Part shown: one piece after another, positions 15,857-47,472 of the stretch
Numbering within the stretch: position 1 is the stretch's first letter
Layout: every line of letters starts with the position of its first letter
DNA from: a virus
Length of the DNA stretch: 64,000 nt
Reading direction: 5' to 3' (one strand)
Virus record (IMG/VR): IMGVR_UViG_3300036770_005874
Coordinates: 5,073-69,072 of that record
Notes under the pieces: model-generated
Database searches by the model: none
Told to the model about the DNA's origin: nothing
What the model saw: only the letters and a program-made list of their open reading frames with translations
Translations under genes and position numbers: made by a program

Positions 15857-16485
15857 CCGCTATTCGAAAGCCGCTCAAGGCTATAAGCGGCCGGCAAAGG
15901 AAGTGCGCGGTTCGTGCCTGCAGGACGCCTTTCGTGCCGAGACGGCCATTCCAGACCTGGTGCAGCCCAGACTGCGCCATCGTGATCGCCCGCCAGAAGC
16001 AGAACCTCGAGCGCAAGGCTCTCGACAAGATCGAGCGAAAGGCCATCCGAGCGGCCAAGGAGCGGGTGAAGCCGCGCAGCGCGCACATGAAGGAGGCTCA
16101 GGATGCCTTCAACGCTTACATTCGCCAGCGTGACCTGGGCCAGCCGTGCATTTCGTGCGGTACCACAGCCAGAGTGCAGTATGCCGCCGGCCACTATCGG
16201 ACGGTGGGCGCCTGCCCCGAACTGCGTTTCGAGCCGCTGAACGTGCACCTGCAGTGCAACAAGAACTGCAACATGGAGAAGTCGGGAAACATCGTGGAGT
16301 ACCGCATTCGCCTTCTGCGGAAGATCGGCGCGGAGAAGGTGGCCTGGCTGGAAGGGCCGCACGAACCGAAGAAGTACTCGATCGAGGACCTGAAGGCGAT
16401 CAAGGCGCACTACCGCGCCTTGACCCGGCAGCTACGCCAAGGGAATGGGGGACGCATTTGCACTACAGAGGGGGGCTGTCCATGA
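15853..16485 (+). CDS. ninG: NinG/Rap HNH-type endonuclease
   Basis: CSPDCA, FNAYIRQRD, CISCG, AGHYR, LRFEPLNVHLQC. Confidence 0.92.
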   Translation: MTAIRKPLKAISGRQRKCAVRACRTPFVPRRPFQTWCSPDCAIVIARQKQNLERKALDKIERKAIRAAKERVKPRSAHMKEAQDAFNAYIRQRDLGQPCISCGTTARVQYAAGHYRTVGACPELRFEPLNVHLQCNKNCNMEKSGNIVEYRIRLLRKIGAEKVAWLEGPHEPKKYSIEDLKAIKAHYRALTRQLRQGNGGRICTTEGGCP

Positions 16486-16973
16486 GTGAGGGCGGGGAGA
16501 AGAAGTCGTCGACGCAGATCGTGCTGGACGCTGTGCGGGACCTGCACAACCTGGAACAGCTGGTGACCAGGGAGGCTCTGCAGGAGCTGACGAAGCTGAA
16601 GATGACCATCGTCGACGATCGGCTCAAGCACCTGGCTGATGAGGGGCTGATTCACCGGATGCAGCGCGGTGTGTTCGTGCCGGTCGACCAGCACCCCCAG
16701 GCGCGCCAGATCAGCCACACCGAGCTACCGGACGGCACCGTGGTGCTGGATGTGGGCGACGAGGTGTTGCACCTGACGCCGAAGGAAGCCAGGACCATGG
16801 CCAGCCTGCTCGCCGGCCGGGCCATCCAGGCCAGCCAGATCGAGCTGGGCAACCAGGCCGCGGTGATGAATGCCGAGCTGGCGCTTCGAGTTCGCCATCT
16901 GGAGCGGCAGGTGAGGGCGTTACTGGCGGAGCGGTGTGCGCCCGAATCTCTACAACTGGCTTTGATAGGCTGA
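16482..16973 (+). CDS. Winged-helix-like protein in Q position; candidate late activator
   Basis: VTREALQELT...VDDRLKHLADEGLIHRMQRGVF resembles wHTH; follows ninG. Confidence 0.7.
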   Translation: MSEGGEKKSSTQIVLDAVRDLHNLEQLVTREALQELTKLKMTIVDDRLKHLADEGLIHRMQRGVFVPVDQHPQARQISHTELPDGTVVLDVGDEVLHLTPKEARTMASLLAGRAIQASQIELGNQAAVMNAELALRVRHLERQVRALLAERCAPESLQLALIG

Positions 16974-17077
16974 GGTCGTCCCATGGCAACAGTAAAAATG
17001 TATTCGGATAGCTGAATGGACGGCTGAACAGTTTGGAGCGAATAATTTACAACATCGCCAGAGAGTAAGGAGTGGGT

Positions 17078-18034
17078 ATGTCAAAGGGGTGGATCGACGA
17101 TCTGATGCGGCTTATGTGCGTTCGTGGACTGATTCCCACTGAAAACATTGAGCGGGCTCAACGACTCAAGCAAAGCCACTTCCCGCAAGCACTATACAAG
17201 TTCAGGGAGGTTAATAACTATTCCTTGAGCAATCTCAGGGAGGCAACGTTACACTTAACGGTCGCAAGTAATTTCAATGACCCCTATGACTCCGCTGTTA
17301 ACTACGATCCACATTTTGGCTTGAGTCATGCCGAGTTGATATTGGATAGCATCGAGGGAGTTACTGCCGACATTAGAGCGAAAATTCTGATGGCTGAGGA
17401 CCCAGTGCTTGAGGTGGTTAGGTATCAAGCAGATCAAACCGATGCAGCTGGCCAAGTTAATAGCGAGGTTCTGGCAAAGATTGCCAAGGTTATAAGTGTT
17501 GGCCATGAATCATTCATCATGAAGGCAAAAGCTGAGATGAATAGGATGGTCCAGAACACCTACAAGATTTGCTCACTAACTGAGCGCTTGGACTCATTGC
17601 CTCTCTGGGCCCACTACGCCAAAAATCACTGCGGCTTTGCCATGGAGTACGATTTTAGAAGTCTACAGTTTGATGATCTGATGGGGCTTTCTCTCTGGCC
17701 AGTCAGGTACAGCGGAGTTTTTGATGCTTCAGAGATGCTAAAAGGAGTCATTTCAGGTCAGCCAATCAACAACATGTTTGCCCTCGTCGCAGCACTGCAC
17801 AAATCTCCCGATTGGGCATACGAGGAGGAGTGGCGACTGGTCATGGTCGATGGATCAGACCAGCCGCCTCGAAACTTTCGCGTACCGCTCAAGGCTGTCT
17901 ACCTCGGATCTCAGACCGGTGAAGAGCACACCAAGCAGGTCGTGCGGGCTGCAGCGGCTATTGGTGTGCCTGTCTACAGAATGCGCTTGGTTCCGCATGA
18001 GTTTCGGATGGAAGCGGTGCCACACCCCCTGTAA
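17078..18034 (+). CDS. DUF2971 family protein (moron, candidate defence)
   Basis: LYKFR, FNDPYD, LWAHYA.NH.GF..EY, KSPDWAYEEEWR; lower GC. Confidence 0.85.
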   Translation: MSKGWIDDLMRLMCVRGLIPTENIERAQRLKQSHFPQALYKFREVNNYSLSNLREATLHLTVASNFNDPYDSAVNYDPHFGLSHAELILDSIEGVTADIRAKILMAEDPVLEVVRYQADQTDAAGQVNSEVLAKIAKVISVGHESFIMKAKAEMNRMVQNTYKICSLTERLDSLPLWAHYAKNHCGFAMEYDFRSLQFDDLMGLSLWPVRYSGVFDASEMLKGVISGQPINNMFALVAALHKSPDWAYEEEWRLVMVDGSDQPPRNFRVPLKAVYLGSQTGEEHTKQVVRAAAAIGVPVYRMRLVPHEFRMEAVPHPL

Positions 18035-18066
18035 GGTTCGATGCGGGGCAGGAGAGCCGGGACAAT
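18024..18066 (+). promoter_or_regulatory. Late-promoter motif copy 1
   Basis: ACCCCCTGTAAGGTT-22bp-GACAAT. Confidence 0.75.
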
Positions 18067-18105
18067 CAAGGCTCCTCATTCCCTCCCTGAGTGCGAGGTT
18101 GCCCC

Positions 18106-18393
18106 ATGCTCAAGCGCCACCTGTCTCTCGCTGTAGCCCTGTCTCTGGCCTGCGGCCTTGCTTTCGCCGAACCGGAGGATGTCCGTCCGTTACCGGCAGC
18201 GGTGTGCTACTCCACCGCCCAGGATCTCGCCGATGCCGGCGGTGCCCGGCTGGTGCCTGCGATGTTCCTGGTGCCCTCGATCGAGGACTACCGCCATCCG
18301 GCAATGCGCAGCGACATGCGTGTGGCCAGCGCCGGCCTGGTGTTCGAGCAGGTGAGCATGCTGGAGGCCCCGCCGGGCAGTATCTGGCTGTAA
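18106..18393 (+). CDS. Small exported hypothetical protein
   Basis: Signal peptide ending AFA; GAGG RBS. Confidence 0.65.
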   Translation: MLKRHLSLAVALSLACGLAFAEPEDVRPLPAAVCYSTAQDLADAGGARLVPAMFLVPSIEDYRHPAMRSDMRVASAGLVFEQVSMLEAPPGSIWL

Positions 18394-18397
18394 AGAG

Positions 18398-18428
18398 AGA
18401 AGCCCGCTTAGTGCGGGCTTCTTGTTTT
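18398..18428. terminator. Bidirectional terminator
   Basis: AGAAGCCCGC-TTAGT-GCGGGCTTCT. Confidence 0.75.
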
Positions 18429-18441
18429 GCAGAAGACGGCC

Positions 18442-18714
18442 TTAGTAGCTCGGATGGATAGAGGCTAAGCCTTCGCCGCGCGATATCCACGTCTCCTCGG
18501 GAGCGTTGGGTGAGGGCATCAGGAATACCTCGACAGGTTTGCCCTCTGCAGGATCTGCCGGCTTTATGCGGGCGTAGCGGTAGGGCGTATGACCGTGATC
18601 AGTTGTCCAGGTACTCTCGGAGCGGTGGAAGTCCCAGATGCCGCTGCCAGCTGCCTCGCTGAGCTTCCGATCCAGTTTCAGCGCCCAGCCTGTGGCCAGT
18701 TTGATCATCAGCAT
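18442..18714 (-). CDS. Hypothetical protein (moron)
   Basis: GGAG RBS; plausible composition. Confidence 0.65.
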   Translation of the reverse strand: MLMIKLATGWALKLDRKLSEAAGSGIWDFHRSESTWTTDHGHTPYRYARIKPADPAEGKPVEVFLMPSPNAPEETWISRGEGLASIHPSY

Positions 18715-18847
18715 GGGTTGGTCTCCGAGATGCTGTATGGCGCCGCATTGTACCGGGCAGATAGGCCAAATGTTGCATTGATCCTGTGCTGCGTAGTATC
18801 AGGTTCAAAGGAACACCACATTTGGCTGGGCATATGGGAGGGTGGCA

Positions 18848-19450
18848 ATGCCGCTGATCAATCAAGACTCAATCGACTTGCTCAAGCAGGATGGAGCTAC
18901 AGTTGCCGGAATCAGGGCAACGGTAGCGAGCAGTGATCTAATTGTGTTCTCCGCCAAGCAACAAGGAATCGCTGAGCTAGTGCGTGTCGATCCAAATGAT
19001 CTGTTGGTCAGAAAGACGTCTGTAGGCGAAGAGACTTACCAGGTAATCGATCCTGTGTTCTATGAGCAGGGTCTCGGGCCCAGGGGAGCGCACTACCAAT
19101 GCAAAGTGAAGAAGCTTGGGTTGCCCGAAGCTACCGCTGCGATCCAACACATCACCTACAACGTAAGCGGTCCGAATGCTCGAGTGAATGTAAATTCAAC
19201 GGACAACTCGACCAACATCGCCAATATCGATTCACAGGTAGATCAGCACATTGGTGACCTGCGAGAAGCAATCAACACCTCCGGGTTGAATGCTGAGCAG
19301 ATGCGCGAGGCGCTGGAGATAGTCGACGCAGTAAAGGCTCAATTTGAAGCTGGTAAGCCGAAGCGGTCAGTTGTGATGGCTATGCTCTCGGCCATTCCAG
19401 CCGTAGGCAAAATCGCTGCCGCAATCACAGCTCTTATCAGTATTCTCTGA
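18848..19450 (+). CDS. Hypothetical protein with N/S/T/V-rich central motif (moron)
   Basis: GGAGG RBS; lower GC. Confidence 0.75.
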   Translation: MPLINQDSIDLLKQDGATVAGIRATVASSDLIVFSAKQQGIAELVRVDPNDLLVRKTSVGEETYQVIDPVFYEQGLGPRGAHYQCKVKKLGLPEATAAIQHITYNVSGPNARVNVNSTDNSTNIANIDSQVDQHIGDLREAINTSGLNAEQMREALEIVDAVKAQFEAGKPKRSVVMAMLSAIPAVGKIAAAITALISIL

Positions 19451-19493
19451 ACCCCCTGTAGGGTTCGACCATTAAATAGCCGGCCGGGACACT
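19451..19493 (+). promoter_or_regulatory. Late-promoter motif copy 2 (terS)
   Basis: ACCCCCTGTAGGGTT-22bp-GACACT. Confidence 0.8.
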
Positions 19494-19500
19494 CCCGGCC

Positions 19501-20349
19501 ATGGCCACCAAATCCCCGGGCGCAAAGCCCACCTCTCCGAAGAGCAAGAAACCGGCTACCAAGCCCAAGGCTGCCGGCAAATCTGCTCGTCCGCGCAATT
19601 CCGTAAAGGTCCAGAACGCCGAGGTCGCGCTGACGCCCCTGCAGGCGCGCTTCGTCGAGGAGTACCTGGTCGACCTGAACGCGACTCAGGCAGCTATCCG
19701 AGCTGGATACAGCAAGAACACAGCTGCCGAGCAGGGCTACGAGAACCTGAGAAAACCTCAGATCGTCGCCGCCATCGCAGAAGCACGCCAGCGCCAGCAG
19801 GAAAGAACCGAGATCACCGCCGACCGGGTGCTGCGAGAAGCATGGAATCAGGTGACTGCTGACGCCCGCGAGTTGACCCAGCTGCGCATCGGCTGCTGCC
19901 ACTTCTGCCACGGTTTCGAGCATCGCTGGCAGCGCACGGACAATGAGTACGAGGCCGATCTGGCGCTGTGGGAGGCCGACGCCAGCCTGGACAAGGGTGA
20001 GTTCAACGAGAAAGGCGGCCCTGGCTTCAATCCGAACGCAGAGCCGCACCCTGATTGCCCGGAATGCGCAGGCGACGGCATTCCGCGCGTTGTGCTGATG
20101 GACACGGCCAACCTGTCGCCAGCGGCTCGCTCGCTGTTCGCCGGCGTTAAGCAGACGAAGTTCGGCATCGAGGTGATGACGCACAGCAAGGACGCGGCCA
20201 TGGAAAAGCTGTTCAAGCACCTGGGCCTTTACGAGAAGGACAACCAGCAGCGCGTCGACCCGCTGGCCAGCCTGCTGCACACGATTGCCAGCGGCAACTC
20301 CAATGGCTTCAAGCCAGTTGCCCGCGATCCTGAGCATGACGAGGGCTGA
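19501..20349 (+). CDS. terS: Terminase small subunit
   Basis: FVEEYLVDLNATQAAIRAGYS motif. Confidence 0.92.
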   Translation: MATKSPGAKPTSPKSKKPATKPKAAGKSARPRNSVKVQNAEVALTPLQARFVEEYLVDLNATQAAIRAGYSKNTAAEQGYENLRKPQIVAAIAEARQRQQERTEITADRVLREAWNQVTADARELTQLRIGCCHFCHGFEHRWQRTDNEYEADLALWEADASLDKGEFNEKGGPGFNPNAEPHPDCPECAGDGIPRVVLMDTANLSPAARSLFAGVKQTKFGIEVMTHSKDAAMEKLFKHLGLYEKDNQQRVDPLASLLHTIASGNSNGFKPVARDPEHDEG

Positions 20350-20352
20350 CCT

Positions 20353-21969: not shown

Positions 21970-21980
21970 GGACACACCAG

Positions 21981-24275: not shown

Positions 24276-24316
24276 TGTCGTGATAGCATTCTGTGATCCA
24301 GTACAGGGAAGTGCCG

Positions 24317-25569: not shown

Positions 25570-25610
25570 TGTCCCCTGGGCCTGGTGCAACGCCGGGTCA
25601 TTTGATTTTG

Positions 25611-25653
25611 ACCCCCTGTAGGGTTTTTGCTTTTTCCTCCCCCTCTCGACACT
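25611..25653 (+). promoter_or_regulatory. Late-promoter motif copy 3 (scaffold/capsid)
   Basis: ACCCCCTGTAGGGTT-22bp-GACACT. Confidence 0.8.
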
Positions 25654-25751
25654 CGTTGGCAAGTTGAGCCACCCGCTCAACGATGCGCAGGGCGGCGACG
25701 CCTTGCACCTGCTGAACCCCTGCGGCCACGGCGATATGTGGCGGGACAAGC

Positions 25752-26801: not shown

Positions 26802-26833
26802 GCTCCGGGTCCCGTTGAACAAGGAGATTTACC

Positions 26834-29607: not shown

Positions 29608-29610
29608 GCG

Positions 29611-30282: not shown

Positions 30283-30324
30283 CCCCCTGTAGGGTTCGTC
30301 GCATCCGCCTGCTGTTCATAGCAT
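30282..30324 (+). promoter_or_regulatory. Late-promoter motif copy 4 (lysis)
   Basis: ACCCCCTGTAGGGTT-22bp-TAGCAT. Confidence 0.8.
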
Positions 30325-33501: not shown

Positions 33502-33505
33502 CCCC

Positions 33506-35412: not shown

Positions 35413-35640
35413 CTAGGTCGCTGTCAATTCTGTGTCTGCCATAGACGAGTGCTGCTCCGGGCGCGAAGCGGTGAGCGCCCTAGGGGCTGTAATGTCGAGC
35501 TGTGCCCGTGTGGCGGAGGATTGGGTCACCTTGATCCTAAGACCGCTTTGCAGCTGATCCCATAGCTCCTGCGGCGTAGTCCCTGGTGTGATTTCAAGCA
35601 GAACCGTCTCACCAACTTTGCGCGTAACCGTCAGTCCCAT
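35413..35640 (-). CDS. RsmN/RsmF-like CsrA-family protein
   Basis: LTVTRKVGE, inserted helix, LRIKV...AQLDITAPR; AAGGAGG RBS. Confidence 0.75.
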   Translation of the reverse strand: MGLTVTRKVGETVLLEITPGTTPQELWDQLQSGLRIKVTQSSATRAQLDITAPRALTASRPEQHSSMADTELTAT

Positions 35641-35708
35641 GTTTGCCTCCTTGCGAAATGAGTCATCTGACAGTAGCAGAGTATTTGTTGTATGTGTTTG
35701 GTTTTTAA

Positions 35709-36050: not shown

Positions 36051-36086
36051 TAAGTGCTCCAGATATTCAGTTAATAACTCGCAACG

Positions 36087-36129
36087 ACCCCCTGTAGGGT
36101 TGGCCAGCAGCAATTTGCATCACGAAACT
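36087..36129 (+). promoter_or_regulatory. Late-promoter motif copy 5 (tail)
   Basis: ACCCCCTGTAGGGTT-22bp-GAAACT. Confidence 0.8.
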
Positions 36130-36154
36130 CGCCCTATCAAGCAAGGGCGAGAAT

Positions 36155-37363
36155 ATGGATCTTATCCGTCGCGACAATTGGACAGCCGGCGCAAACAATA
36201 TCGCACCGCGTGACCGGCTGCCCGAGGCCTCCGCCAGGGAGCTGGTAAACCTAGACCCCCTGCCGGGCGGGCGTCTCGCATTGCGCGCCGGGTACCAGAA
36301 GCGCCTCACTACCAATGCAGCCCGAGGTCTGCTGGCCCTTGGTCGCAAGGTACTGCTGGCGGACGGAACCGATCTCATCGAGTTCGACACCAACACCAAC
36401 AGCTCCAGGGTGATCCGAACGATCGCCGGCGCCGGCCAGCTGGTGGGAGCAGTCCTGAACGACCGTCTGTACTTCTGCACCGCCAACGAGGCGCTTGAGT
36501 ATGACGGTGAGGAGGTTCGCCCGTGGGGCGTGCCTGATGTCATCCAGCAGCCGGTTGTCAGCAGCGCGGCTGGTGGAACCCTGCTGGAGGGTGACTATCA
36601 GGTGGCCATGACCCTTACCGACCAGTGGGGCCGAGAAGGCGGCACAGGATCGCCAGTGGTCATCAGCGTGCCGGCGTTTGGCTCTCTCACTGTTCAGGTG
36701 CCAAGCCTGCCTTCCGGTTGCACCGCGAACCTCTACGCCAGTGCCGTCAACGGCCAGACCCTATATCTGCAGCGCCGCGTGACTGCTGAAGGCAGCGTTG
36801 AGATTGGAGCGGTCGACGACAGTACCCAGCGTTGCGAAACGGTGCGCGCCTGGGCACCGCCGGTCGGTCATCGGGTCTGCGCGCACAATGGCGTGCTGGC
36901 CATCGCGGTGGGCAACACCGTGCAGATCACCAGGCCCTTGCGCCCGCACCTGATCGACCGGGCGCGCAGCTTCTTCCAGTTTCCGCGCCTTGTCGGCGAC
37001 GTGTTGAGCGCTGCCGGCGCCTTGTTCGTCAGCTCTGATCGTATGTACGCCGTCCGCAGCGTAGAGACCGCCGAGGTCACCCAGGGCGTGGTGCACGAAT
37101 ATCCGGCCATCCCAGGCACCGCCATCCTGCTGCCGGACGGTCGCGGCGCGTGGATGACCCAATACGGACAAGCCATCGCCGGCGCAGACGGCGTGCAGCT
37201 GGTTACCCGCGAGCGCTACCTGCCTGCCGAGGCCGCCAGCGGCGCAGCCGGCGTTCTCGATCACAACGGCACCCAGCTGATTCTGTCCGTACTCCATGGC
37301 CCTCAGGGGGCCGACAACCCACTGGCTTCGGCCGATAGTTACCTTGGTGAGGTTTTTCAATGA
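36155..37363 (+). CDS. Putative tail (nozzle/stabilisation) protein
   Basis: GANN...NLD...RAGY, beta-rich; position. Confidence 0.65.
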   Translation: MDLIRRDNWTAGANNIAPRDRLPEASARELVNLDPLPGGRLALRAGYQKRLTTNAARGLLALGRKVLLADGTDLIEFDTNTNSSRVIRTIAGAGQLVGAVLNDRLYFCTANEALEYDGEEVRPWGVPDVIQQPVVSSAAGGTLLEGDYQVAMTLTDQWGREGGTGSPVVISVPAFGSLTVQVPSLPSGCTANLYASAVNGQTLYLQRRVTAEGSVEIGAVDDSTQRCETVRAWAPPVGHRVCAHNGVLAIAVGNTVQITRPLRPHLIDRARSFFQFPRLVGDVLSAAGALFVSSDRMYAVRSVETAEVTQGVVHEYPAIPGTAILLPDGRGAWMTQYGQAIAGADGVQLVTRERYLPAEAASGAAGVLDHNGTQLILSVLHGPQGADNPLASADSYLGEVFQ

Positions 37364-37863
37364 GCATTCTTGGTCGCGGCTTCACCTTTTACGAAGAGCT
37401 ATTGCTGCCCAGCGGCGAGCTGATCAAAGGTCCGCCCATTCGCAACAAAACCCCGCAGGAGGGTGTGGATTTCCTCGCCGACTTGATCCTGGGTACCGTT
37501 GTTCCGATCAGTTCCTGGTACCTCTTCCTGTTCGAGTCGAACTACGTGCCGACTGGTACCGAGAAGGCTAGCGACCTGCCGGGCGCTATTGGTGAGTGCA
37601 CCGCCTATTCCCAGGCTTCGCGTCCGGCCTTCAGCGGCGTGTACGACGGCATCTCCGTGATCGACAACCTGGCGGCCAAGGGCAAGTTCAACTTCAGCGC
37701 GAACAAGACCATCTATGGCGCCGGCATCGTTTCCAGCGGAACCAAGGCCGGCACCGGTGGGCTGATTATTTCGATCGCACGCTTCCCTTCGCCGCGGGTA
37801 ATTGCCGCCGGCACCGAGTATTCCCTTGGCGCAGCTATCCCGCTGCTTTCAACTGACCTGTAA
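37360..37863 (+). CDS. Virion structural protein
   Basis: Coupled ORF in tail operon. Confidence 0.65.
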   Translation: MSILGRGFTFYEELLLPSGELIKGPPIRNKTPQEGVDFLADLILGTVVPISSWYLFLFESNYVPTGTEKASDLPGAIGECTAYSQASRPAFSGVYDGISVIDNLAAKGKFNFSANKTIYGAGIVSSGTKAGTGGLIISIARFPSPRVIAAGTEYSLGAAIPLLSTDL

Positions 37864-37875
37864 GGAGTCATCATC

Positions 37876-38322
37876 ATGGGCATGAAGATCAGCACCGGAC
37901 TGGCTAAGGGGCTGCTCGATACCGGCAGCCTGCGCGACCTGCTCACCGGTATGACGTTGAAGATCTACTCGGGTACCGAGCCGACCAGTGCAGATGCGCC
38001 CCTCGGAGCCGCCACCCTGCTGTGCGAAGTCTCGCTGGATGGTTTGGGTGATCCGATCAGTTTCGAAGCTACGGCTGTGGGCAACGTACTGCAGAAGAAC
38101 TCCAGCGAAACCTGGAAGGGTACTGTGCTCGCAACTGGCGTGGCGGCTTTCTGCCGACTGGAGCTGGCTTCTGATACAGGTAACGCCAGTTCGAGCGAGG
38201 TGCGCTTGCAAGGTGATGTTGGCATAGCAGGCAAGTTCCTCAACCTGTCCAGTACCAGCCTGACCGCCTCCGCAGAACAGGGCATCGCCAACTTAGCTAT
38301 TGCCATGCCTCTGCAGGCATAA
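37876..38322 (+). CDS. Virion structural protein
   Basis: LKIYSG.EP..AD, RLQGDVG. Confidence 0.65.
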   Translation: MGMKISTGLAKGLLDTGSLRDLLTGMTLKIYSGTEPTSADAPLGAATLLCEVSLDGLGDPISFEATAVGNVLQKNSSETWKGTVLATGVAAFCRLELASDTGNASSSEVRLQGDVGIAGKFLNLSSTSLTASAEQGIANLAIAMPLQA

Positions 38323-38334
38323 GAGGCATTCACC

Positions 38335-40173
38335 ATGGCCAACCGGCTGCAGAAGCTCGCGCTGGTTAAGTACACCCCAGGCACGCCTGAGGTGCTGCCT
38401 GTACCAGCCTATTGCGTGAAGGTGCCGGAGTACCTGCCCGCGCGTACAGGCATCTCCGGTTGGATCTATGGTGTGGTCACCGGTATTGGTCAGAACGCAG
38501 GCCAGACCGCCTATATCCCGCAGTACAAGCAGTTTCCTGCCCAGACCATCTACAGGGATATCTGCTACCCGGCTGTGCCGGGCAGAAAGGCGGTACCAGC
38601 AGTCGTCCAGTACACCGCCATCAACGGATGGAGCAGCGGAGCACGCAGCAGCGAGATGCTGGAGGCTGACGGGCATTTCGCTTTCCAGGTTGGCCGCTCG
38701 GTTGGCGCCGTTGTGGTTGGGCTTTCCAGAAACAACATCACCACGTTGCCGAATGAGCAGACCCACGCGCTGTATATCCATGATGGGCAAGTCGACATCA
38801 TGGAGAGCGGCTACGTAGTCGCCAGCAATGTGCTGGAGCATTTCGGCTCAACCGTTTACCGAATCGCCCGGCGCGGTGACCGCATCACATACGAGACGGA
38901 AGATTGGTCGTATGAGAGCAGCATGCCTTCCCAAGGCCCGGTCGCGCTCGACGCATCTCTTTACAGCTCTGGGGACTACATCGAAAACCCGGAACTTGAG
39001 GTGTATGCACCGTCAGGGTATGCCGCCGGACCTCTCCCTGCACTATCTGGCATCGGCAGCGACAGCAGTGGCTATGCCTTCGGCGGCGGTTCGCTGGTTG
39101 CACTGCGCGGCGAGGGCGCTGGTGGAATGCTTGAGGGGGGCTCCGGCAGCCTGCAGGCGCTATCTGGGTGGGGCTCTGACCAGGCAGGCTACGGTGCTGG
39201 GGCAGGCGTGCTGCCGGCGCTGATCGGCGACGGCGACGGTGGATTCCCAGAGTTTCAGATTGCAACTGCCCAGGGCTTTCTGTCCCCTCTGATCGGCCTT
39301 GGCTTTGGCATCACCGGCGAGATCGGCGAAGGCGCGGGATCGCTGGGTGCTTTGACCGGGTGGGGTTCTGATCGTGACGGCTATGCGGCCGCCAGCGGCA
39401 CGCTGCAGGCCGTAACCGGTTTTGGCAACGGCAGCATTCCTGGTCTGAGCGAGGACATCATCAGCAGCACGCTGGTGATTGGAAGTTCCTTCGATGCACC
39501 GCTGGTTGCTGCCGACAACATTTCCAGCCAGCTCACTATCGGCAACAGCTTCACTCTGACAGGTCTGTCCGGTGACGATTTCACCTCTGCGTTGATCTTC
39601 GGCGGGTCGTTTGCTGACGAGTTTGCGGTGGTGGACAGCTATCGAAGCGGTCTCCTTTTGGGCTTCCGACTCTATGACCAGCTTGCGGCAGAGGATCTTG
39701 CCGGCGTACTGGCCGCCCAATCTCAGCAGCTTGCCGTGAACGCGCTGACGGGGGCTCCAAGCCGCTATGTGGACTTCGACTTTAAGGCATTCGCTCAGGT
39801 CGGTCAGGAGCTCTACGCGCTGCGTGCCGACGGGCTTTATCGCGTTCGTGCTGGCGATGATGACGGCGAGAAGCTGCGCGCCATGGTTGATCTTGGCGCC
39901 TCTGATTTCGGCGTCAGCCAGGTCAAGCGAGTGGAGTCCGTGCTGCTGGGAGCGGACACCGATGCAACTGTGCGAGTGAGGCTGACTGCCGACAGCGGCA
40001 ACAACGTCTACCCGCTGAAGTTCTATGGACCCATGGCCAGGGCAATAACCGCCAAGGGCGCCAGCGGCCGCCTGTGGAACACCGTCCTGGAGATCGATGG
40101 GGCCAGTTTCTTCGATATGGACACTATTGAGTGGCGGGTAGGCGCATCAAGCCGTCGCCTTCTCAGGAGGTAG
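38335..40173 (+). CDS. Gly-rich virion/tail protein
   Basis: Repeated G(W/I)GSD..GY units; position. Confidence 0.65.
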   Translation: MANRLQKLALVKYTPGTPEVLPVPAYCVKVPEYLPARTGISGWIYGVVTGIGQNAGQTAYIPQYKQFPAQTIYRDICYPAVPGRKAVPAVVQYTAINGWSSGARSSEMLEADGHFAFQVGRSVGAVVVGLSRNNITTLPNEQTHALYIHDGQVDIMESGYVVASNVLEHFGSTVYRIARRGDRITYETEDWSYESSMPSQGPVALDASLYSSGDYIENPELEVYAPSGYAAGPLPALSGIGSDSSGYAFGGGSLVALRGEGAGGMLEGGSGSLQALSGWGSDQAGYGAGAGVLPALIGDGDGGFPEFQIATAQGFLSPLIGLGFGITGEIGEGAGSLGALTGWGSDRDGYAAASGTLQAVTGFGNGSIPGLSEDIISSTLVIGSSFDAPLVAADNISSQLTIGNSFTLTGLSGDDFTSALIFGGSFADEFAVVDSYRSGLLLGFRLYDQLAAEDLAGVLAAQSQQLAVNALTGAPSRYVDFDFKAFAQVGQELYALRADGLYRVRAGDDDGEKLRAMVDLGASDFGVSQVKRVESVLLGADTDATVRVRLTADSGNNVYPLKFYGPMARAITAKGASGRLWNTVLEIDGASFFDMDTIEWRVGASSRRLLRR

Positions 40174-40175
40174 CG

Positions 40176-41123
40176 TTGAGCAACTACAACGAAACAACCG
40201 GTTTTCTGCAGGATGTCGCCTCGCAGGCGATGACTGCAGCCAGCAACAATGCCAGCCGACTCTACTCGTTGCCAGGCAGCGTGTCGCTGCGCAACCCGCG
40301 CTTCGATGTGGAGCTGAAAAAGCCAGTTATCGGTCCGCCGCCAGCCTTCTCCGACCTGTTCGTCGGAGGTGATAGCACAGATCCGACGATCCGCTACATG
40401 GACGATCAGGCGGATAAGTGGTTGGAGAAGTTCTTTCCGGAGATGAATGGCGGGTTCCGCAATCAGCCAGAAGAGACGCTGTGCAACATTCTCTCCGGCG
40501 TCAAGCCGTTTGGTATCGATAGAACCATCTTCGATCTGGTCTGGCATCAGGCGCGCGACCGTGCGTACCGAACGGTTTCCAGCGAGCAACGCGCAGTTGA
40601 GGCATCGTTCTCTGGGCGAGGCTTTACTCTGCCGCCTGGAGCAATGGTAGACACGCTGGCGCAGATTGAGCAGCGTGCTACTGACACCATCCTCGACGTG
40701 AATCGCGACCAGGCCATCAAGGATGCTGATATCAAACAGCGGATGTTGGAGATTGGTCTGCAGCTGTCCGCCCAGCTGAAAACCGGTGTGCTCGCAGCGA
40801 TGGCAGACTTTTACCGCATGTGGATCAGCCTGCCTGACAAGGATATTGAGCGAGCTCGGATTCGTGCCCAGGCGATGGGATCGTTCTACTCGGCGCTGAG
40901 CAGCTACCACAACGTCGAGATGGCATTTCAAGAGCTGACCTTGAGGGCGGCGCAGCTTCGCTCAGTGGTCGATGTCGACGTTGACCGGAATGCCTTGGCC
41001 CGCCAAAACAACTCAGCAGCCGCAACCGGCGCATTGGGCTCTGCGGTGAATGCCTTTGCCGGCATTGCTTCGAGCGCCGCTCAGGCTGGTGGGTCGCTCA
41101 CTGCAGAGATCGAGACGCTGTAA
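40176..41123 (+). CDS. Putative internal virion protein
   Basis: AGGAGG RBS with TTG start; SGRGFTLPPGA motif. Confidence 0.65.
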   Translation: MSNYNETTGFLQDVASQAMTAASNNASRLYSLPGSVSLRNPRFDVELKKPVIGPPPAFSDLFVGGDSTDPTIRYMDDQADKWLEKFFPEMNGGFRNQPEETLCNILSGVKPFGIDRTIFDLVWHQARDRAYRTVSSEQRAVEASFSGRGFTLPPGAMVDTLAQIEQRATDTILDVNRDQAIKDADIKQRMLEIGLQLSAQLKTGVLAAMADFYRMWISLPDKDIERARIRAQAMGSFYSALSSYHNVEMAFQELTLRAAQLRSVVDVDVDRNALARQNNSAAATGALGSAVNAFAGIASSAAQAGGSLTAEIETL

Positions 41124-41776
41124 TGACCGTCTTCTTGTTGGACAAATTCACGCTTGAAGGAGCGCTGAACGGCAGCCTGCCTGAGATAGGCCGCCCATCA
41201 ACCACCTGGTCGGCTTCTTCCGGGATCAAGTCTGGTGGATACCTCGTCGCTCCAAACAATGCATCGTTCAACTGGTTCGGGGGAGAGATTCGTCTCCCAT
41301 CGCCAGGTGCTGCGTACTCGCACCTGACAGTGCGTTGCAAGTGGTTGTTCTCGACTGAGTCGCCCGTGCGGGCATATGCCGGGTTTGCCGAGGGCTGGTA
41401 CAAAACTGTGTTCGAGTACAACACGTCCAGTGGCGTGCCAGCGTGCACCGGCATACTCGGGCCTATAGATGCTGCTTCGATCAATCCCGATGGCGTGAAC
41501 GAGGTTGTGGTTTCTCTCAACTTCCAAGACAAGACTGCGATCACCTACATCAACGGTGTCCTCGTGCAGACCGGGGTTATGGCTTTTGGGGGAGGTGAGG
41601 GCAGCGCCTACCCCAGAGCCAGCCTGCTGTTCTTCGAGGTGGGAGGGACCACCGAGAGATTCAACGGTACGCTCCTGCGCTCCCAGCTGGACGAGCTTGA
41701 AGTAACAGATGAGCCATACGTCCCCCTGGTCGAGCCATTCTGGACCAACGTGGTTGGTGCGGTAGAGACGCCGTGA
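41123..41776 (+). CDS. Hypothetical protein
   Basis: TAATG coupling; C-terminal FWTNVVGA. Confidence 0.65.
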   Translation: MTVFLLDKFTLEGALNGSLPEIGRPSTTWSASSGIKSGGYLVAPNNASFNWFGGEIRLPSPGAAYSHLTVRCKWLFSTESPVRAYAGFAEGWYKTVFEYNTSSGVPACTGILGPIDAASINPDGVNEVVVSLNFQDKTAITYINGVLVQTGVMAFGGGEGSAYPRASLLFFEVGGTTERFNGTLLRSQLDELEVTDEPYVPLVEPFWTNVVGAVETP

Positions 41777-43968
41777 GGTTCATCTTCCGGCCACTGGTGA
41801 GCTATGCCGTCCATACCCGCAAGTGGTGTCGTGATCTCGCGCTTGGGCTCCCAGGGGTGGGGGTTGTTCGGCGAATCATCGATGGATTCCTGGTGCAGGT
41901 ATCCAAGCGCAACGACACGGCCGTCGCTGATGTCATAGACATGCCGGGTACCATCTTCGTGGCGGGCATGCAGTCGCATTGGTCGGAGGTCAGTGGTGGC
42001 GTGGAGACCTTCTATCCGCAGGGACGATGCGGATACATCCTGAGCTCTGCTGATGGCGAGCCTTACGCCGGCAACATGACCTACGCGCTTATGATGCCAG
42101 AGGGTGTCGCGTACTCAGGGTTCTTCGATATCGGCTGGCTGCAGCCGACCAAGTATCTCTCCGCCTCAGGGAAGCCGTGGGCTCCTTTCAGCTGCTGGAG
42201 TGTATCAACGCTACCTGGAAGCGGAGGCAGTCTCACCTACGCGATGGCGGGTGCAGACGGAGTCAACCAGTTCTCGGACCTGTATGTCGCACGTATGGCC
42301 CCTGATCCTCAAGTGGGCGACGGTGCATGGAGCCTGGCCGGTGAAGCGGTGGAAGCTGAGACGGCAAGCTGGCGCGTTCTGCATATAGCGCGCACCGACA
42401 TTGCGAGCGAGCCAGGAGAACACCCGCTGTCAGACTTTCCCGACGTTGCCGCTACGGGATACGGAAACGACATCGTTTATGTGGTCACCTGTTCCATCAA
42501 CAACCAGCCAGGTAGCAGCAGTGGAACACCTGCATGGGATGCAAGCAGGAATGGTTTGTCGGTGGCTAGAGTGGAGATCGTTGATGGAGAAGATGGTCCG
42601 CAGGCGAAGGTAGTAAAGCTCGGGCGCATCACCGCAGATGATCTTCTGCCACTGGACAGGCCTCAGCGCGTGATGTGGAGCATGGCACCGCCCAGGGCGT
42701 ACACCCTCGTCAGGCTGAACGGTGACTACAACATCAACAGCCCCCGCAGCGGCGTGTTTAATCCCAGCGCCTCTCTGGACTATGGCCCATTTGCCTCCTT
42801 CGGTGCATTCCAGAATCCCGGAGAGCCGAAGACTCGCTTTGTGTGGAGGCGGGCACCCCGCCTCGCTTGCGTGGGGCTCGCTGAAGGGGTGGACATACTG
42901 TTCACCGTTCAGACATCCCGAGAGCTGCCTCTGGTACAAGCAACATGGTCTTACTCGACGCCAGAACTGGTCACCGTCGAGGAGGATATCGCCGTGCCAG
43001 AGTACTCAGCGTCTGGGGACATAAGCCTAAATCACACGGCTACCTACCTGGTGCACGTTGCACTAGATGGCAGCAAAACCGTGCGCTGCATCCACAGGCA
43101 TACGTTCTCTGTTCACGACCAGACGCTGCGCGTTCTGCCGCGGGTTGAGTTCAGCCCGGTCCTGACGTACCGGGACTTAACAGTCGAAGGGGATGAGGTG
43201 GTTGAGGTATCGCGCTTTGTCTGCATTCGTGCAGAGAGCGGGGAGTATGCCGTCGGCAACCCAGATCCTGATCTGCGGCGCGTGCATCGAGCTGTTGCCC
43301 CAACCAAAGAGGGCGTGGATCTGGCGGTTATCTCAAGCGACGGCAGCTACGTCATTGCCGAGCTCGGTGACCTGTACCCGGTGAGCTATCCGTGTGTGGC
43401 TGACGGGATATCGGATGTCTCTTCGGATTCAGTGGATGGCGCCATACGGCGGCATGGATACGGCTGCGACAAGTTCCTATGGCCGGAGTACAGGAATGGC
43501 TATTCATCTGTAGCCCCGGCCTGCGTGTATGCCCCAGGCATGATTGCAGTAGTGGTTGCCACCAGGGCCGGGTTCTCCAGCGCATCTCAAATCGCCAAGC
43601 TAGCTGTGATCCGGGTCCGCGACGGTGAGCTTGTGCGGCTTTCCGATTTTGAGCTGCCGTTTGTGGTCAGTAACGCCTCCGGAGATGCAGATCAGTGGAA
43701 CGTCACTTGTGTGGAAGAGGGCGCAGTCGATGAGGACGGTGAGCTGACGCGCTACGCCAAGTTGTTGCTCTCCAAGGTAGGACGCAGGGTGCCGTCGATT
43801 CTTTATCGGGCTGATGATCTGAGCACACTGAGAAGTGTTGGCGCTTGGGGGTTGATAGGTCAGAACTACCTCAGGGGCCCAGCCTACTACCTTGGCTCTC
43901 CTATCGCGCCAGCAAGAGCGGGGCGCACCACTGGGCGTAGCTTTCTTGCGGGGAAGTCGGTGCAGTAA
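41773..43968 (+). CDS. Large hypothetical protein (possible receptor-binding)
   Basis: GTGA overlap; beta-rich, atypical codon usage. Confidence 0.65.
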   Translation: MRFIFRPLVSYAVHTRKWCRDLALGLPGVGVVRRIIDGFLVQVSKRNDTAVADVIDMPGTIFVAGMQSHWSEVSGGVETFYPQGRCGYILSSADGEPYAGNMTYALMMPEGVAYSGFFDIGWLQPTKYLSASGKPWAPFSCWSVSTLPGSGGSLTYAMAGADGVNQFSDLYVARMAPDPQVGDGAWSLAGEAVEAETASWRVLHIARTDIASEPGEHPLSDFPDVAATGYGNDIVYVVTCSINNQPGSSSGTPAWDASRNGLSVARVEIVDGEDGPQAKVVKLGRITADDLLPLDRPQRVMWSMAPPRAYTLVRLNGDYNINSPRSGVFNPSASLDYGPFASFGAFQNPGEPKTRFVWRRAPRLACVGLAEGVDILFTVQTSRELPLVQATWSYSTPELVTVEEDIAVPEYSASGDISLNHTATYLVHVALDGSKTVRCIHRHTFSVHDQTLRVLPRVEFSPVLTYRDLTVEGDEVVEVSRFVCIRAESGEYAVGNPDPDLRRVHRAVAPTKEGVDLAVISSDGSYVIAELGDLYPVSYPCVADGISDVSSDSVDGAIRRHGYGCDKFLWPEYRNGYSSVAPACVYAPGMIAVVVATRAGFSSASQIAKLAVIRVRDGELVRLSDFELPFVVSNASGDADQWNVTCVEEGAVDEDGELTRYAKLLLSKVGRRVPSILYRADDLSTLRSVGAWGLIGQNYLRGPAYYLGSPIAPARAGRTTGRSFLAGKSVQ

Positions 43969-43971
43969 CTG

Positions 43972-44014
43972 GCCCCCTGTAGGGTTTTTCAACGGTCGCC
44001 GCTTCGAGAACAAT
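43972..44014 (+). promoter_or_regulatory. Late-promoter motif copy 6
   Basis: GCCCCCTGTAGGGTT-22bp-AACAAT. Confidence 0.8.
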
Positions 44015-44042
44015 CCAGCTATTCCATTGGAGGTGCGAAGCC

Positions 44043-45821
44043 ATGTTCGGCGTTCCCGGCTACAAAAAGACCCCCGGCGGTAAGATCGAGGGGCCTGGTA
44101 CTGGCACTTCAGATTCGATCCATAAAGCTGTTCAGGCCGGCACTTACATCATGCCTGCGGACTCGACCAGAGAGATTGGTGAGCGGAATTTGGCTGGGCT
44201 CGGGGTTCCTGGATACCAGGGTAAAGAAGTGTCGGTAAATTTGAGCAAAGGTGAGTTCGAGCTCACTCCTGGGCAAGTGCATGCCGTTGGTGTGCAGGCT
44301 CTGGACGCCATGAAGCAGGCGACGCACAAACCCACCGGCCGAGGTGTTCCGCGCAAGGAGCTTTTCTTCGCCGACGGTGGCCTGGTTGAAGACCCGCAGA
44401 AAAAGCGACTCACCGGTCCAGGTCTACAGGCCATGGGAACTCAGGCGGTCCAGGCCGCACGGCAGGCCGCGGTGTCGCCTGTGACCCAGCAGAAGGCTGG
44501 TCGGGGTGTTCCCGGGTGGCAGACGTTGAGGGATGGCCTTGCCGGTGGCGCAAAGGCGCTGGTTGGCGCAGCTGCAGTGCCGCATGCAGCTGTGGCTGAT
44601 GCCGTGCGCAATACCGCGACCCTCGCAACCGGTGGCGACCCCGACACCCTTGAGGGTGGCCGTGCGAAGTACCGTGATATGGCGGTCGGTACCACCCAGG
44701 AAGGGCTGGATCAGGCTGGCACGGCCGCGCAGACTTTCCGTGAGGCAGGCCGGGAGGCACTCGGTGCCCAGCCCCTGGCCTCGGCCCAGCAATCCTCAGT
44801 CGCTCCACCAGCAGCACCCGCTGCGCCGGTAGCTGGAGCTGCAGCAGCGCCTGCTGAAGCATCAGCACCTGCTGGTCGTGGTGCGCCAGGCTGGCAAGGG
44901 ACTGGCATTGGGGCTGACCGCCAGGGCGGCGAGATTGCCATGCGGCAGGGCGCAAGCGGCGTGCCGGAGTTCACCAACGAGGCGGCGACGCCGGGCGCGG
45001 TATCCGCTGGCCGCGGTGTTCCCGCTCCAAGTTCTCAGCCTTCTGCAAGCTCTCAGCCGCGCCTCGGCGTGCCTGGGTATGGTTCTGCCGCGAACGTAGG
45101 CAACGGTGTGGGCACCTTCAGCCAGGCCGAGGCGGGCAGCTCACAGCTGGCCCTGGATCGCTTCGAGCGCGCCAACCAGGAACGTGGGCGCATGGTTGAG
45201 CAAGCCCAGGCCGGCGAACTCGGTAACAACGGTGGCCGGCTGACTGTGGTGCGAGACAGCTCCCGCACTCCGACCCTGCAGGAGCGTCGCTTGGGCCGAC
45301 ATGAGGCACAACTGGCCCAGACCGAGGCACTACGATCCCGCACGTCCAACGAATCTGGGGAGTCTGCAGTCCGCACTGCCGCCGAGCACCAGCGCATGCA
45401 AACCGAGCAGCTCAACCAGCAGCGGCTGGGCCAGCAGATTGAGGAGGGCGAAGTCGCCGCGGTTGATCGCCAGCGGCTGGAGTCGCTGCGCGCGGCCATT
45501 GCCGACCCGAACACCAGCGAGCAGGAACGCAATGCTGCGCGCCAGGCCTACAACGTGCTTGCCACCCAGGCGAAGGACCGCTACATCACGCAGGATGTCG
45601 TAATGGGGCAGGGTAACAATGGTCCGGTGATTGGTCGCCAGGTGATCGACGTCACGACTGGTCAGCCTGTAAGTGGGAAGGCGCAGGCTGAGTCAGACCA
45701 ATTCGCAGGTGGGCCTCCTGCTGCTGCCGTTGCGGCCCTACTTGAGAATCCCAATCGCGCTGCAGAGTTCGATAAGAAGTTCGGGCAGGGGGCAAGCGCA
45801 AGGTATCTCGGCGCTGGTTAG
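44043..45821 (+). CDS. Putative DNA ejection protein
   Basis: GPGTGTSDSI N-terminal domain, A/G/Q-rich; position before giant protein. Confidence 0.65.
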   Translation: MFGVPGYKKTPGGKIEGPGTGTSDSIHKAVQAGTYIMPADSTREIGERNLAGLGVPGYQGKEVSVNLSKGEFELTPGQVHAVGVQALDAMKQATHKPTGRGVPRKELFFADGGLVEDPQKKRLTGPGLQAMGTQAVQAARQAAVSPVTQQKAGRGVPGWQTLRDGLAGGAKALVGAAAVPHAAVADAVRNTATLATGGDPDTLEGGRAKYRDMAVGTTQEGLDQAGTAAQTFREAGREALGAQPLASAQQSSVAPPAAPAAPVAGAAAAPAEASAPAGRGAPGWQGTGIGADRQGGEIAMRQGASGVPEFTNEAATPGAVSAGRGVPAPSSQPSASSQPRLGVPGYGSAANVGNGVGTFSQAEAGSSQLALDRFERANQERGRMVEQAQAGELGNNGGRLTVVRDSSRTPTLQERRLGRHEAQLAQTEALRSRTSNESGESAVRTAAEHQRMQTEQLNQQRLGQQIEEGEVAAVDRQRLESLRAAIADPNTSEQERNAARQAYNVLATQAKDRYITQDVVMGQGNNGPVIGRQVIDVTTGQPVSGKAQAESDQFAGGPPAAAVAALLENPNRAAEFDKKFGQGASARYLGAG

Positions 45822-46147
45822 CGGCTGTCGAACTGGTCGAAGAAGTTCTCATTGTACAAGCGATCACAGGCCAGACGGATCTGGTATGCGGCGGTGCGGC
45901 TCCGGGTATCACCAGACTGATCTAGAGCACAGTCGGCACCAGAGTCGTATCCAAGCATGCCGCGGCCGTCCCCCTGCGTCACAGCTTCCAGACCACCAGG
46001 GTGATCGGCTCGGCATACCTGGATTGCAGCTGCCGCTGCTTGGTCATTCTCCAGCCCCGGCAGCTTGTCCAGCAGGCAGGTGGCGTAGTTGGAAGCGCTC
46101 GCCAAGCCCGGCAAGCTCAATAGAGTAAGCATAAGAAATTTTGTCAT
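45818..46147 (-). CDS. Exported four-cysteine protein (VF_A0006-like) moron
   Basis: Signal peptide, NYATCLLDKLPG..ND.AA, C-terminal ACDRLY.ENFFDQFD. Confidence 0.75.
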   Translation of the reverse strand: MTKFLMLTLLSLPGLASASNYATCLLDKLPGLENDQAAAAAIQVCRADHPGGLEAVTQGDGRGMLGYDSGADCALDQSGDTRSRTAAYQIRLACDRLYNENFFDQFDSR

Positions 46148-46227
46148 TGCGCCATCCTTGATTTTCATGATCTAGCGGCTATTCATTAAATGGCCATAAG
46201 CCATGATCGTAGCTGAGGGACCAGACG

Positions 46228-47286
46228 ATGCGTGCTCCTGCCTTTGCTTGTTTTTCAGTGTTCTTCAGCGGATGCACATTGTTCCCTAGTGAGCCTGACT
46301 TCCCTTGGGCATCTAAGCCTATCTGTGCAGACAATAACGTGGCGGTGGAATGCACCAGCAAACATGTCGCTGATGCCTACAAGGATGCGCGTGTTTATTG
46401 CCTGAACCTGGCAAAAAGCTACGAAGACGGCAGCGATCTAGTCAACTCGTCCACCTTCTTTATCGGCGGAATTGGCACGCTTGCAGGGGCAGTTTTCTCC
46501 CCGCTTGCGGGGGGCAGCGCCAAGACCGCTTGGTCTGGTCTCTCTGGTTCGGCCAATGCTCTTCAAACCGGGGTAAATACGAGCTTCTCTAATGCCGTCA
46601 ATGCGCGGCGGCGAGCGGAGATTGCCAACGCGGGAACTGCTGGCAAGGACGCAGTGGTGCAGGGAACAGACCCAACTAAGAGGGTGCTGGCGGCAATCGA
46701 TTTAGCGTATGACTGCAAGATGGCAATTGGCAGGGCGGATGTAGCTGCGGCAGAAGCCTTGAATAAAATCCAATCCGGGGCGCCGATTAAGTCAGAGAGT
46801 CCGTCTGCAACAGTTGACCCTGTCGGGACTAAGGTTGATGCCGAGAAAAGCGCCGAAGAAGCTGCAAAGCCGGCTGCTGATGCTGCTACGAAGGTGGCTA
46901 TCGATCCGAGTGCCACTGTCAAGGATAAAGCAACAATTGAAAAGCTCCGTGGCCAAATTGCGGAAGCTGCCGCTGTAGCGGCTGCACCAGTTGCTGCGGC
47001 AGCCGCTACAGACGTGGCCAGAAAGGCATCGGTAGTTGGGGGCGAGACTCCAAGCCTAAACCAGACTCAGGCAGCTGCAACGGTTGCGGCGCAAATGGCG
47101 GCAGAGCCTGTGGCGAGGGCAGCAGCAGAAGAAAAAGCAGCTGAAATTCTCACCGGTAAATCTCAGGAAGTTAAGAACGCGGTGCTGGAGACTACTGTTC
47201 CTGCCGCATCCGCAGCCGCAGAGGCCGCTGCCAAGGCTGCCGCGAGTACGGCGACTGCGCCGGCGCAGCCTGTAATCACTCCGTAG
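46228..47286 (+). CDS. Putative lipoprotein with Ala-rich C-terminus (moron)
   Basis: Lipobox FSGC; lower GC. Confidence 0.7.
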   Translation: MRAPAFACFSVFFSGCTLFPSEPDFPWASKPICADNNVAVECTSKHVADAYKDARVYCLNLAKSYEDGSDLVNSSTFFIGGIGTLAGAVFSPLAGGSAKTAWSGLSGSANALQTGVNTSFSNAVNARRRAEIANAGTAGKDAVVQGTDPTKRVLAAIDLAYDCKMAIGRADVAAAEALNKIQSGAPIKSESPSATVDPVGTKVDAEKSAEEAAKPAADAATKVAIDPSATVKDKATIEKLRGQIAEAAAVAAAPVAAAAATDVARKASVVGGETPSLNQTQAAATVAAQMAAEPVARAAAEEKAAEILTGKSQEVKNAVLETTVPAASAAAEAAAKAAASTATAPAQPVITP

Positions 47287-47429
47287 AAATCTAAGGTATG
47301 AGCGTGAGTGTAGTTAGGGGCCTATTGCCTTAGGCCCAGTTCTGACTCATTCAATACTCAACACAAAGGCTGAGTCGGACAGGCCAAGTTTTTCTCGGCG
47401 GCTTTTCGTCTTGATCGGTATTTGACCCG

Positions 47430-47472
47430 CCCCCCTGTAGGGTTCGTTAGTTTTTCCTGTTTCCAGTGACAT
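47430..47472 (+). promoter_or_regulatory. Late-promoter motif copy 7 (giant protein)
   Basis: CCCCCCTGTAGGGTT-22bp-TGACAT. Confidence 0.75.

Follow-up and report, generated by a model that had tools for sequence, protein, structure and literature searches.

The 64-kb stretch of DNA analysed here (the window), part of the 69,072-base IMG/VR virus record IMGVR_UViG_3300036770_005874, is judged from Pfam and PHROGs scans to be a temperate phage with a lambdoid layout, and it raises the question of how the late genes of such a phage are switched on when none of the 90 open reading frames (ORFs) scanned matches a Q family. The absence of a recognisable Q gene had been pointed out in an earlier reading made from the sequence alone, which proposed that a near-identical repeat on the + strand marks seven late promoters, and that a winged helix-turn-helix (wHTH)-like ORF, 16482-16973, located directly after ninG in the place of Q, encodes their activator. 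The comparisons described below indicate that the seven sites are very probably real, conserved late promoters of the activator type. The joint claim, that they are such promoters and that the product of ORF 16482-16973 is their activator, is made with less assurance but is considered probable.

The boxes and the promoter geometry

The repeat is the 14-mer CCCCCTGTAGGGTT (the box), which is found at seven sites in the window, all seven on the + strand. Six copies are exact, starting at 19452, 25612, 30283, 36088, 43973 and 47431, and one copy at 18025 has a single mismatch (CCCCCTGTAAGGTT). Coordinates given in the sequence-only reading were one base lower because a 15-mer was counted there. 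The expected number of sites was 0.28 in 100 shuffles, none of which attained seven, and the whole record includes seven forward and no reverse matches. With a tolerance of three mismatches just four extra hits appeared, all on the − strand, for a total chance expectation of 4.5. Exactly 22 base pairs (bp) 3' of boxes 1 to 7 are the hexamers GACAAT, GACACT, GACACT, TAGCAT, GAAACT, AACAAT and TGACAT, respectively, and the 22-bp spacers show no evident similarity to each other by eye. These hexamers, their spacing, the NANNNT pattern in six of the seven and the unrelated spacers had all been listed before and were seen again on re-reading.

Each site heads a block of late genes, as previously proposed. 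Putative late promoter 1 (18025-18066, + strand) consists of box CCCCCTGTAAGGTT at 18025-18038, which overlaps the stop codon of a DUF2971 gene (17072-18034, + strand, Pfam), and a candidate −10 element GACAAT at 18061-18066, and it is followed by a gene for a small exported protein with a predicted signal peptide (18091/18106-18393) and then by two unknown genes. Promoter 2 (19452-19503, + strand; box 19452-19465, −10 GACACT 19488-19493) leads into terS, the ATG of which is at 19501. Promoter 3 (+ strand; box 25612-25625, −10 GACACT 25648-25653) precedes a gene in the scaffold position (25752) and the capsid gene (26834), and it is itself preceded on this strand by a terminator-like hairpin (25579-25599, then ATTTGATTTT). 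The box of promoter 4 (30283-30324, + strand; −10 TAGCAT 30319-30324) begins with the base directly following the stop codon of the adaptor gene, and the genes downstream include those for a holin (30360), lysozyme, Rz and a tail fibre, among others. Promoter 5 (36088-36129, + strand; −10 GAAACT 36124-36129) is followed by head-closure and virion genes (36155-43968), and its predicted transcript opens with a 5' hairpin, CGCCCT...AGGGCG (z −3.12). Promoter 6 (43973-44014, + strand; −10 AACAAT 44009-44014) has the gene 44043-45821 (phrog_11341) and those following it downstream. Promoter 7 (47431-47472, + strand), in which TGACAT at 47467-47472 is the only hexamer without A at position 2, precedes a gene for a polyvalent protein (47489-56464).

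Related loci were collected by three routes: an exact-box scan of viral contigs (>130 stretches), the portal protein (80 related loci) and the ORF family (16 prophage loci examined, out of 17 in named genomes). When loci were oriented by their late genes, the relaxed box pattern CCCCTNTARGGYT identified 198 sites on the + strand and none on the − strand, and the 80 portal-related loci (1.45 Mb) have the box 158 times on one strand versus 0 on the other. The signature of a sigma70 −10 element, i.e. a hexamer at constant distance with A as its second and T as its sixth base, is present at six of the seven window sites and, with the spacer of 22 bp, at 76 of 101 non-redundant sites; a spacer of 23 bp gave 24 and every other offset from 10 to 39 gave 12 or fewer. 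The A at −11 is retained in 81 and the T at −7 in 88 of 125 sites, and as these are the letters that define the sigma70 −10 element, their retention supports assignment of the hexamer as a −10. In prophages of AT-rich hosts (Acinetobacter, Alkanindiges and Psychrobacter), the hexamer is AATAAT, GATTAT or TAACAT, i.e. it drifts towards TATAAT.

Over positions 14-19, counted from the start of the box, the mean agreement with TTGACA is 3.17 of 6 letters as compared with 1.2-1.8 at other offsets, one match being guaranteed by the near-invariant T of the box at position 14. At least four of six letters match in 43 of 101 sites, and the window sites have two to four. The −35-like hexamer (consensus T(C/T)GAC) is made up of the last base of the box and the next five, exactly 17 bp from the −10. 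This fixed geometry places the box at −48 to −35, with its centre at −41.5, so that it abuts a weak −35-like hexamer with a one-base overlap. A plain sigma70 consensus scan called no canonical promoter at any box site, and its silence fits promoters that need help. The comparison therefore supports the proposal of activator-dependent late promoters of the sigma70 type with a site at about −49 to −35, the box being predicted to span about −48 to −35. The same box lies before p42 in Pseudomonas phage F116, in which the candidate promoter hexamers include those at 22727, 28680, 45730 and 59201.

A candidate activator that tracks the box

ORF 16482-16973 (+ strand, 163 amino acids (aa)) is the last conserved early gene, and overlaps the stop codon of ninG (NinG, 15853-16485, + strand; Pfam expectation value (E) 6.6e-63), which confirms the position given for it earlier. 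Its product matches phrog_8117 (E 6.6e-56), a family of unknown function, and has no Pfam or NCBIfam match at threshold. An AlphaFold2 model built from 30 homologues has a mean predicted local distance difference test score (pLDDT) of 80.1 and includes an N-terminal winged helix (residues ~7-70), a small β sheet (78-98) and a long C-terminal helix of ~50 residues (100-152). In the model, the three helices and hairpin wing of a wHTH domain are seen as H10-23, H30-37, H41-54, E57-61 and E64-67 at pLDDT ~80-86, in agreement with the earlier assignment. The top VIA-align match is the DNA-binding wHTH of IdeR (Z 10.4, root-mean-square deviation 2.0, 64 residues), followed by many other winged helices.

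Among the 30 family members, 19 have sub-threshold wHTH matches and eight have sub-threshold matches to HTH_Crp_2. A search of the PDB with the profile of the family returned nothing significant (best E 0.095), and an Atlas search returned unnamed clusters only. The label AbiEi_4 (PF13338), carried by two phage homologues, was rejected for the ORF product, which has no match to it at E up to 1; 19 of the 30 family members match at E up to 1 (best 1.2e-4), below the gathering score, and an AbiEii partner was not seen in the Pfam and PHROGs scans of the window ORFs. Further, no Mor/C, Ogr, Q, sigma or RNA polymerase family was found among the 90 window ORFs at E up to 0.001-0.01. A library of 1.84 billion proteins contains 542 clusters of the family when grouped at 50% identity. 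Its hosts range from Pseudomonas to Acinetobacter, Psychrobacter, Methylotenera and a Desulfuromonas metagenome-assembled genome, and together with the box it is found in prophages of Pseudomonas, Acinetobacter, Psychrobacter, Methylotenera and others. The closest named homologue (60% identity) is encoded by MW749009.1, labelled Bacillus phage vB_BspP_Dartukuta. As the other relatives all infect Proteobacteria, this host label may deserve a check.

The sequence-only reading had asked for a check of whether the motif and homologues of the ORF co-occur across prophages, and the protein family does track the box across virus records. Among 50 portal loci with flanks long enough for assessment, 43 have both ORF and box, four have neither, two have the ORF with boxes of one mismatch only, and one is an apparent exception, in which the ORF is found elsewhere in the record together with five boxes. 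A second set consisted of 14 records at least 90% complete, chosen solely by the presence of one exact box. The eight of these with the ORF hold two to six boxes each on one strand, and the six without it hold exactly one, which is read as a chance hit. In F116, the homologue of the ORF (p37) ends with a stop codon 2 bp ahead of the first box.

When the 61 window genes were compared with seven whole genomes, ORF 16482-16973 alone had a homologue in each of the six genomes with boxes (35-50% identity) and none in G002, the genome without them. This profile bears on the possibility that the late promoters are real but are activated by another phage protein or by a conserved host protein, the ORF travelling with the boxes for some other reason. 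Co-occurrence is not the same as binding, and small uncalled genes may escape a 61-gene profile. However, no other of the 61 window genes both accompanies the box through six divergent genomes and is lacking in G002, and the hosts extend from Pseudomonas to Acinetobacter, Psychrobacter, Methylotenera and the Desulfuromonas genome. In addition, G002 has the same GC content as the window (0.63), which suggests a similar host, yet is box-free. A different activator is thus considered unlikely.

G002, the record behind locus L157, is closely related to the window phage in its virion genes, with 71% identity in the portal and 76% in the capsid protein, but includes neither a homologue of the ORF nor a CCCCCTGTAGGGTT-type box. 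In their place, the + strand of G002 has AGTCACATAGCGTC seven times, in each case preceded by a TTGCNN hexamer, at 24243, 26527, 31877, 36482, 39027, 47707 and 50743. The first copy lies 23 bp after an 89-aa gene (L157:5598-5867) in the slot equivalent to that of the ORF. The arrangement resembles that of the window in having seven co-oriented boxes on the late-gene strand, the first just after a small gene in the Q slot, and the three boxes with positions worked out precede the lysis cassette, terS and the post-portal region. It differs in that AGTCACATAGCGTC spans the −10 region behind a TTGCNN −35, and in that the slot gene is unrelated; a profile comparison found the ORF family unrelated to L157:5598-5867 and also to L179:6092-6583. 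Thus, G002 looks like a case of a different regulator/site pair acting on a different type of promoter, i.e. a swapped late regulon. Since G002 shares the structural genes but has neither the ORF nor its box, the regulatory cassette is separable from the virion genes, as the model of a protein/site pair predicts, and the swap would be a natural case of exchange of a regulatory cassette between phages with nearly the same virion genes.

It is proposed that each of the seven boxes forms the upstream half of a late promoter used by the host RNA polymerase with sigma70. In such a promoter, the NANNNT −10 would lie at −12 to −7, a weak −35-like hexamer would cover −35 to −30, and the 14-bp box would extend from −48 to −35. 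The protein that binds the box would most likely be the winged-helix product of ORF 16482-16973, which is expressed from the end of the early rightward operon (the Q slot). Bound beside the −35, this protein would recruit or stabilise the polymerase at promoters too weak alone, and the packaging, head, lysis, tail and virion-protein modules would be switched on together. In this proposal, we infer binding of DNA by the ORF product, activation rather than repression, contact with the polymerase and the transcription start sites.

Several observations weigh against this proposal. The four records that lack both ORF and box share one gene arrangement and are probably one lineage, hence the negative side of the co-occurrence represents few independent events. 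Loci from the genomes of Aquabacterium and Moraxella bovis carry the ORF, yet showed no box with the pattern applied. In G045, the ORF points opposite to most of the boxes and one box is on the other strand, a layout that is compatible with a trans-acting factor, yet atypical. Foldseek found no PDB match to the model at E 0.001 or better (best E 6e-3), and the winged helix is a very common domain, so that a match of fold is uninformative on the target sequence. A distance of only 6 bp, as between the half-sites of the core dyad CCCT-N2-AGGG, is unusual in the site of a dimeric HTH protein. Finally, a plain promoter model does not predict a −10 located within a hairpin of variable stem, as is seen at the terS-type sites.

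As a separate observation on G045, its box promoters at 3529 (− strand) and 3971 (+ strand) face away from each other and have identical downstream sequence, which could reflect an inverted duplication or an invertible segment.

Hairpins at the terS-type sites

At the window terS site, the −10 is in the loop of GGCCGGG-ACACT-CCCGGCC (19481-19499), a hairpin of −17 kcal/mol (z −3.76) that none of 200 shuffles equalled. The ATG at 19501 has no Shine-Dalgarno sequence and is separated from the −10 by seven bases, i.e. it is at the expected transcript start. The same placement of ATG is found at 28 non-redundant sites elsewhere, mostly upstream of terS, for which the mean z is −2.31 and 16 of 28 are below −2. 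At 120 other sites the mean z is 0.08, and only one is below −2. The hairpins were scored by folding each sequence against shuffles, and compensatory changes were read by eye with no formal count; on that basis, the stems vary in sequence between phages and the pairing is kept. RNAalifold applied to 22 terS-type sites recovered just a 3-pair stem inside the box, the register of the alignment shifting between phages.

The terS mRNA is predicted from this layout to be leaderless. Because a late transcript starting at the ATG would be without the 5' arm, the hairpin could only form in read-through RNA (or in extruded DNA). Tentatively, terS-type promoters may combine a leaderless mRNA, a −10 in the loop of a 5-9 bp hairpin and a start codon directly after the stem, such that in read-through RNA the hairpin hides a start codon that has no Shine-Dalgarno sequence, or extruded DNA offers a single-stranded −10. 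If this is true, terminase would be made only from activator-started transcripts, and promoter choice would act as a switch on translation, layered on a new, widespread activator family with regulator/site cassettes swapped between otherwise near-identical phages.

These hairpins also bring into consideration a function of the box in RNA or extruded single-stranded DNA, in processing, anti-termination or translational control, with the hexamer as a hairpin-loop motif. The strict co-orientation of boxes with genes, the frequent abutment of boxes on an upstream stop codon and the significant hairpin around the hexamer at the 28 ATG sites, with stems that differ in sequence between phages, would all suit such a function, as would the pairing of the 5' part of the box with a downstream CAGGGG and T run in low-GC relatives. 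However, the 120 other sites are unstructured and 75 of them still have NANNNT at a spacer of 22, the 14-mer by itself can form just three pairs, conservation is at exactly A-11 and T-7, the hexamer drifts towards TATAAT in AT-rich hosts, and a −35-like hexamer is located at 17 bp. An RNA or single-stranded DNA role in place of a promoter is accordingly regarded as improbable.

In six of the low-GC loci (L170, L173, L174, L180, L192 and L218; the third site in each), the promoter spacer incorporates a terminator-like hairpin. Its stem is formed by ACCCCTG, from the 5' part of the box, and a CAGGGGT further downstream, and a T run then leads directly up to a CATAAT hexamer.

That the ORF product is a repressor, which delays or limits late promoters able to fire alone or with another factor, is very unlikely: a site abutting the −35 could equally occlude the polymerase, and 43 of 101 sites have at least four matches to TTGACA, but −10s such as GACACT and GAAACT are poor, most −35s match at only 2-4 of 6, the gene has the location typical of a late activator or Q (last in the early operon and, in F116, adjacent to the first of the late promoters), and no other late regulator is recognisable among the 90 ORFs.

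Other candidates for the box were rejected. The CTGT half-site of a LexA box has no ACAG partner at N8, and the box is C-rich, unlike an UP element. A promoter for a virion polymerase of the N4 type was discounted because Pfam identifies no polymerase domain in the giant protein, a homologue of which is also encoded by the box-free G002. No domain of a phage sigma factor or RNA polymerase is present in the 90 ORFs, and the ~32 bp between the centres of box and −10 would be too long for one sigma to read both.

Phage context and comparison with known systems

The nearest named relatives of the window phage are F116 and its kin (genus Hollowayvirus), and it is a podophage of the F116 type with a lambdoid layout, not a transposable phage. 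The leftward early genes include those for RecT, a YqaJ exonuclease and a CsrA homologue (8202-8570, − strand; Pfam E 9.3e-24). A short distance upstream of late promoter 5, the opposite strand has a second, weakly CsrA-like ORF (35413-35640, − strand; E 0.0054), and the F116 annotation likewise has a CsrA-like gene, among its late genes. The CI-type repressor gene (11549-12820, − strand) encodes HTH_3 and Peptidase_S24 domains. Its frame is open over 423 aa and, as the HTH is confined to residues 147-207, the true start is probably internal. A ClpP-like SDH-protease gene lies downstream on the same strand (the region of both being 10547-12820, − strand), and an ORF called at 11207-12163 on the + strand is probably spurious. 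The rightward early operon contains a Cro/YdaS-like gene, CII, an O-like gene, NinB and NinG.

The late region encodes TerS, TerL, a P22-type portal, capsid, an SU10-type adaptor, holin, lysozyme, Rz, tail fibre, head-closure and virion proteins, and ends with the polyvalent virion protein of 2991 aa (47489-56464, + strand), which includes Pfam domains InPase, LPD5 and LPD1, with ART-PolyVal below the cut-off. This protein has a predicted late promoter of its own, and homologues at 29-65% identity are present in five of the seven genomes compared. Beyond it, umuD (57000-57437) directly precedes the N-terminal 81 aa (57430-57675) of a split umuC-type gene (57430-63550 overall), the remainder of which is at 62450-63550. 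The ~4.8 kb between the halves contain two tyrosine recombinase genes (57731-58750 and 58747-60912), a chlorite-dismutase-like gene and a cupin gene, and this segment is an inserted mobile element.

Searches of the open literature by string and keyword found no description of the box or protein; the 2005 F116 genome paper is outside that coverage. Among the string-search matches listed for CCCTGTAGGG and CCCTACAGGG, no paper deals with a phage, and the available parts of PMC5217972 and PMC3558961 describe no late promoter or activator. The type of system is thus familiar, but protein family and site appear to be undescribed, in line with the earlier view of an apparently uncharacterised activator/site pair; the family is also unnamed in Pfam and NCBIfam.

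Among the phages of Pseudomonas aeruginosa, F116 is a classical agent of generalised transduction. Nothing was found in print on how its late genes are switched on, and work in F116 would annotate the late switch for a large group of temperate phages. Knowledge of the box would make late transcription units predictable from sequence alone, and the protein and promoter might serve as a compact, orthogonal pair for use in Pseudomonas and Acinetobacter.

The sequence-only reading compared the system with those of Mu C and P2 Ogr, and the analogy stands for the mode of action but not for the family, as the protein belongs to neither. In phage Mu, the late promoters Plys, PI, PP and Pmom use the activator C, and Pm uses Mor; the site is at about −30 to −55, the −35 is poor and the polymerase carries host sigma70. 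The window shares with Mu dispersed late promoters that each head a module, a poor −35 and a site for a putative phage activator overlapping or abutting the −35. It differs in the unrelated sequence of the site, in a phage that is not transposable and in the ORF product, which is in no named Pfam family and for which the model shows a winged helix, a small sheet and a long helix. Membership of the Mor/C family was rejected, as none of the 30 family members has a Mor-type domain at E up to 1.

P2 Ogr is a zinc-finger (Cys4) protein of ~72 aa that recognises TGT-N12-ACA near −55. As for Ogr and P4 Delta, four or more late promoters would be under the control of one small phage activator, but the window ORFs include no Pfam Ogr match, the product of ORF 16482-16973 has a single Cys, and the box differs from the Ogr site in both sequence and position.

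Lambda Q is an antiterminator that acts at one promoter. ORF 16482-16973 resembles the Q gene in location, since it follows ninG where the early rightward operon ends and is placed immediately before the first late unit. Unlike the lambda system, the window has seven predicted promoters and no Q-family match, and at 25579-25653 a terminator-like hairpin is followed by a fresh promoter.

Lambda cI at PRM and CRP at class II promoters are centred near −42 and −41.5, respectively. The box is similarly centred at −41.5 and overlaps the −35-like hexamer by one base, a position that allows contact of a bound protein with sigma region 4 or the α N-terminal domain. The operators of cI and CRP are symmetric and 17-22 bp long, whereas the box is 14 bp and asymmetric with a very short dyad core, and the protein family is unrelated.

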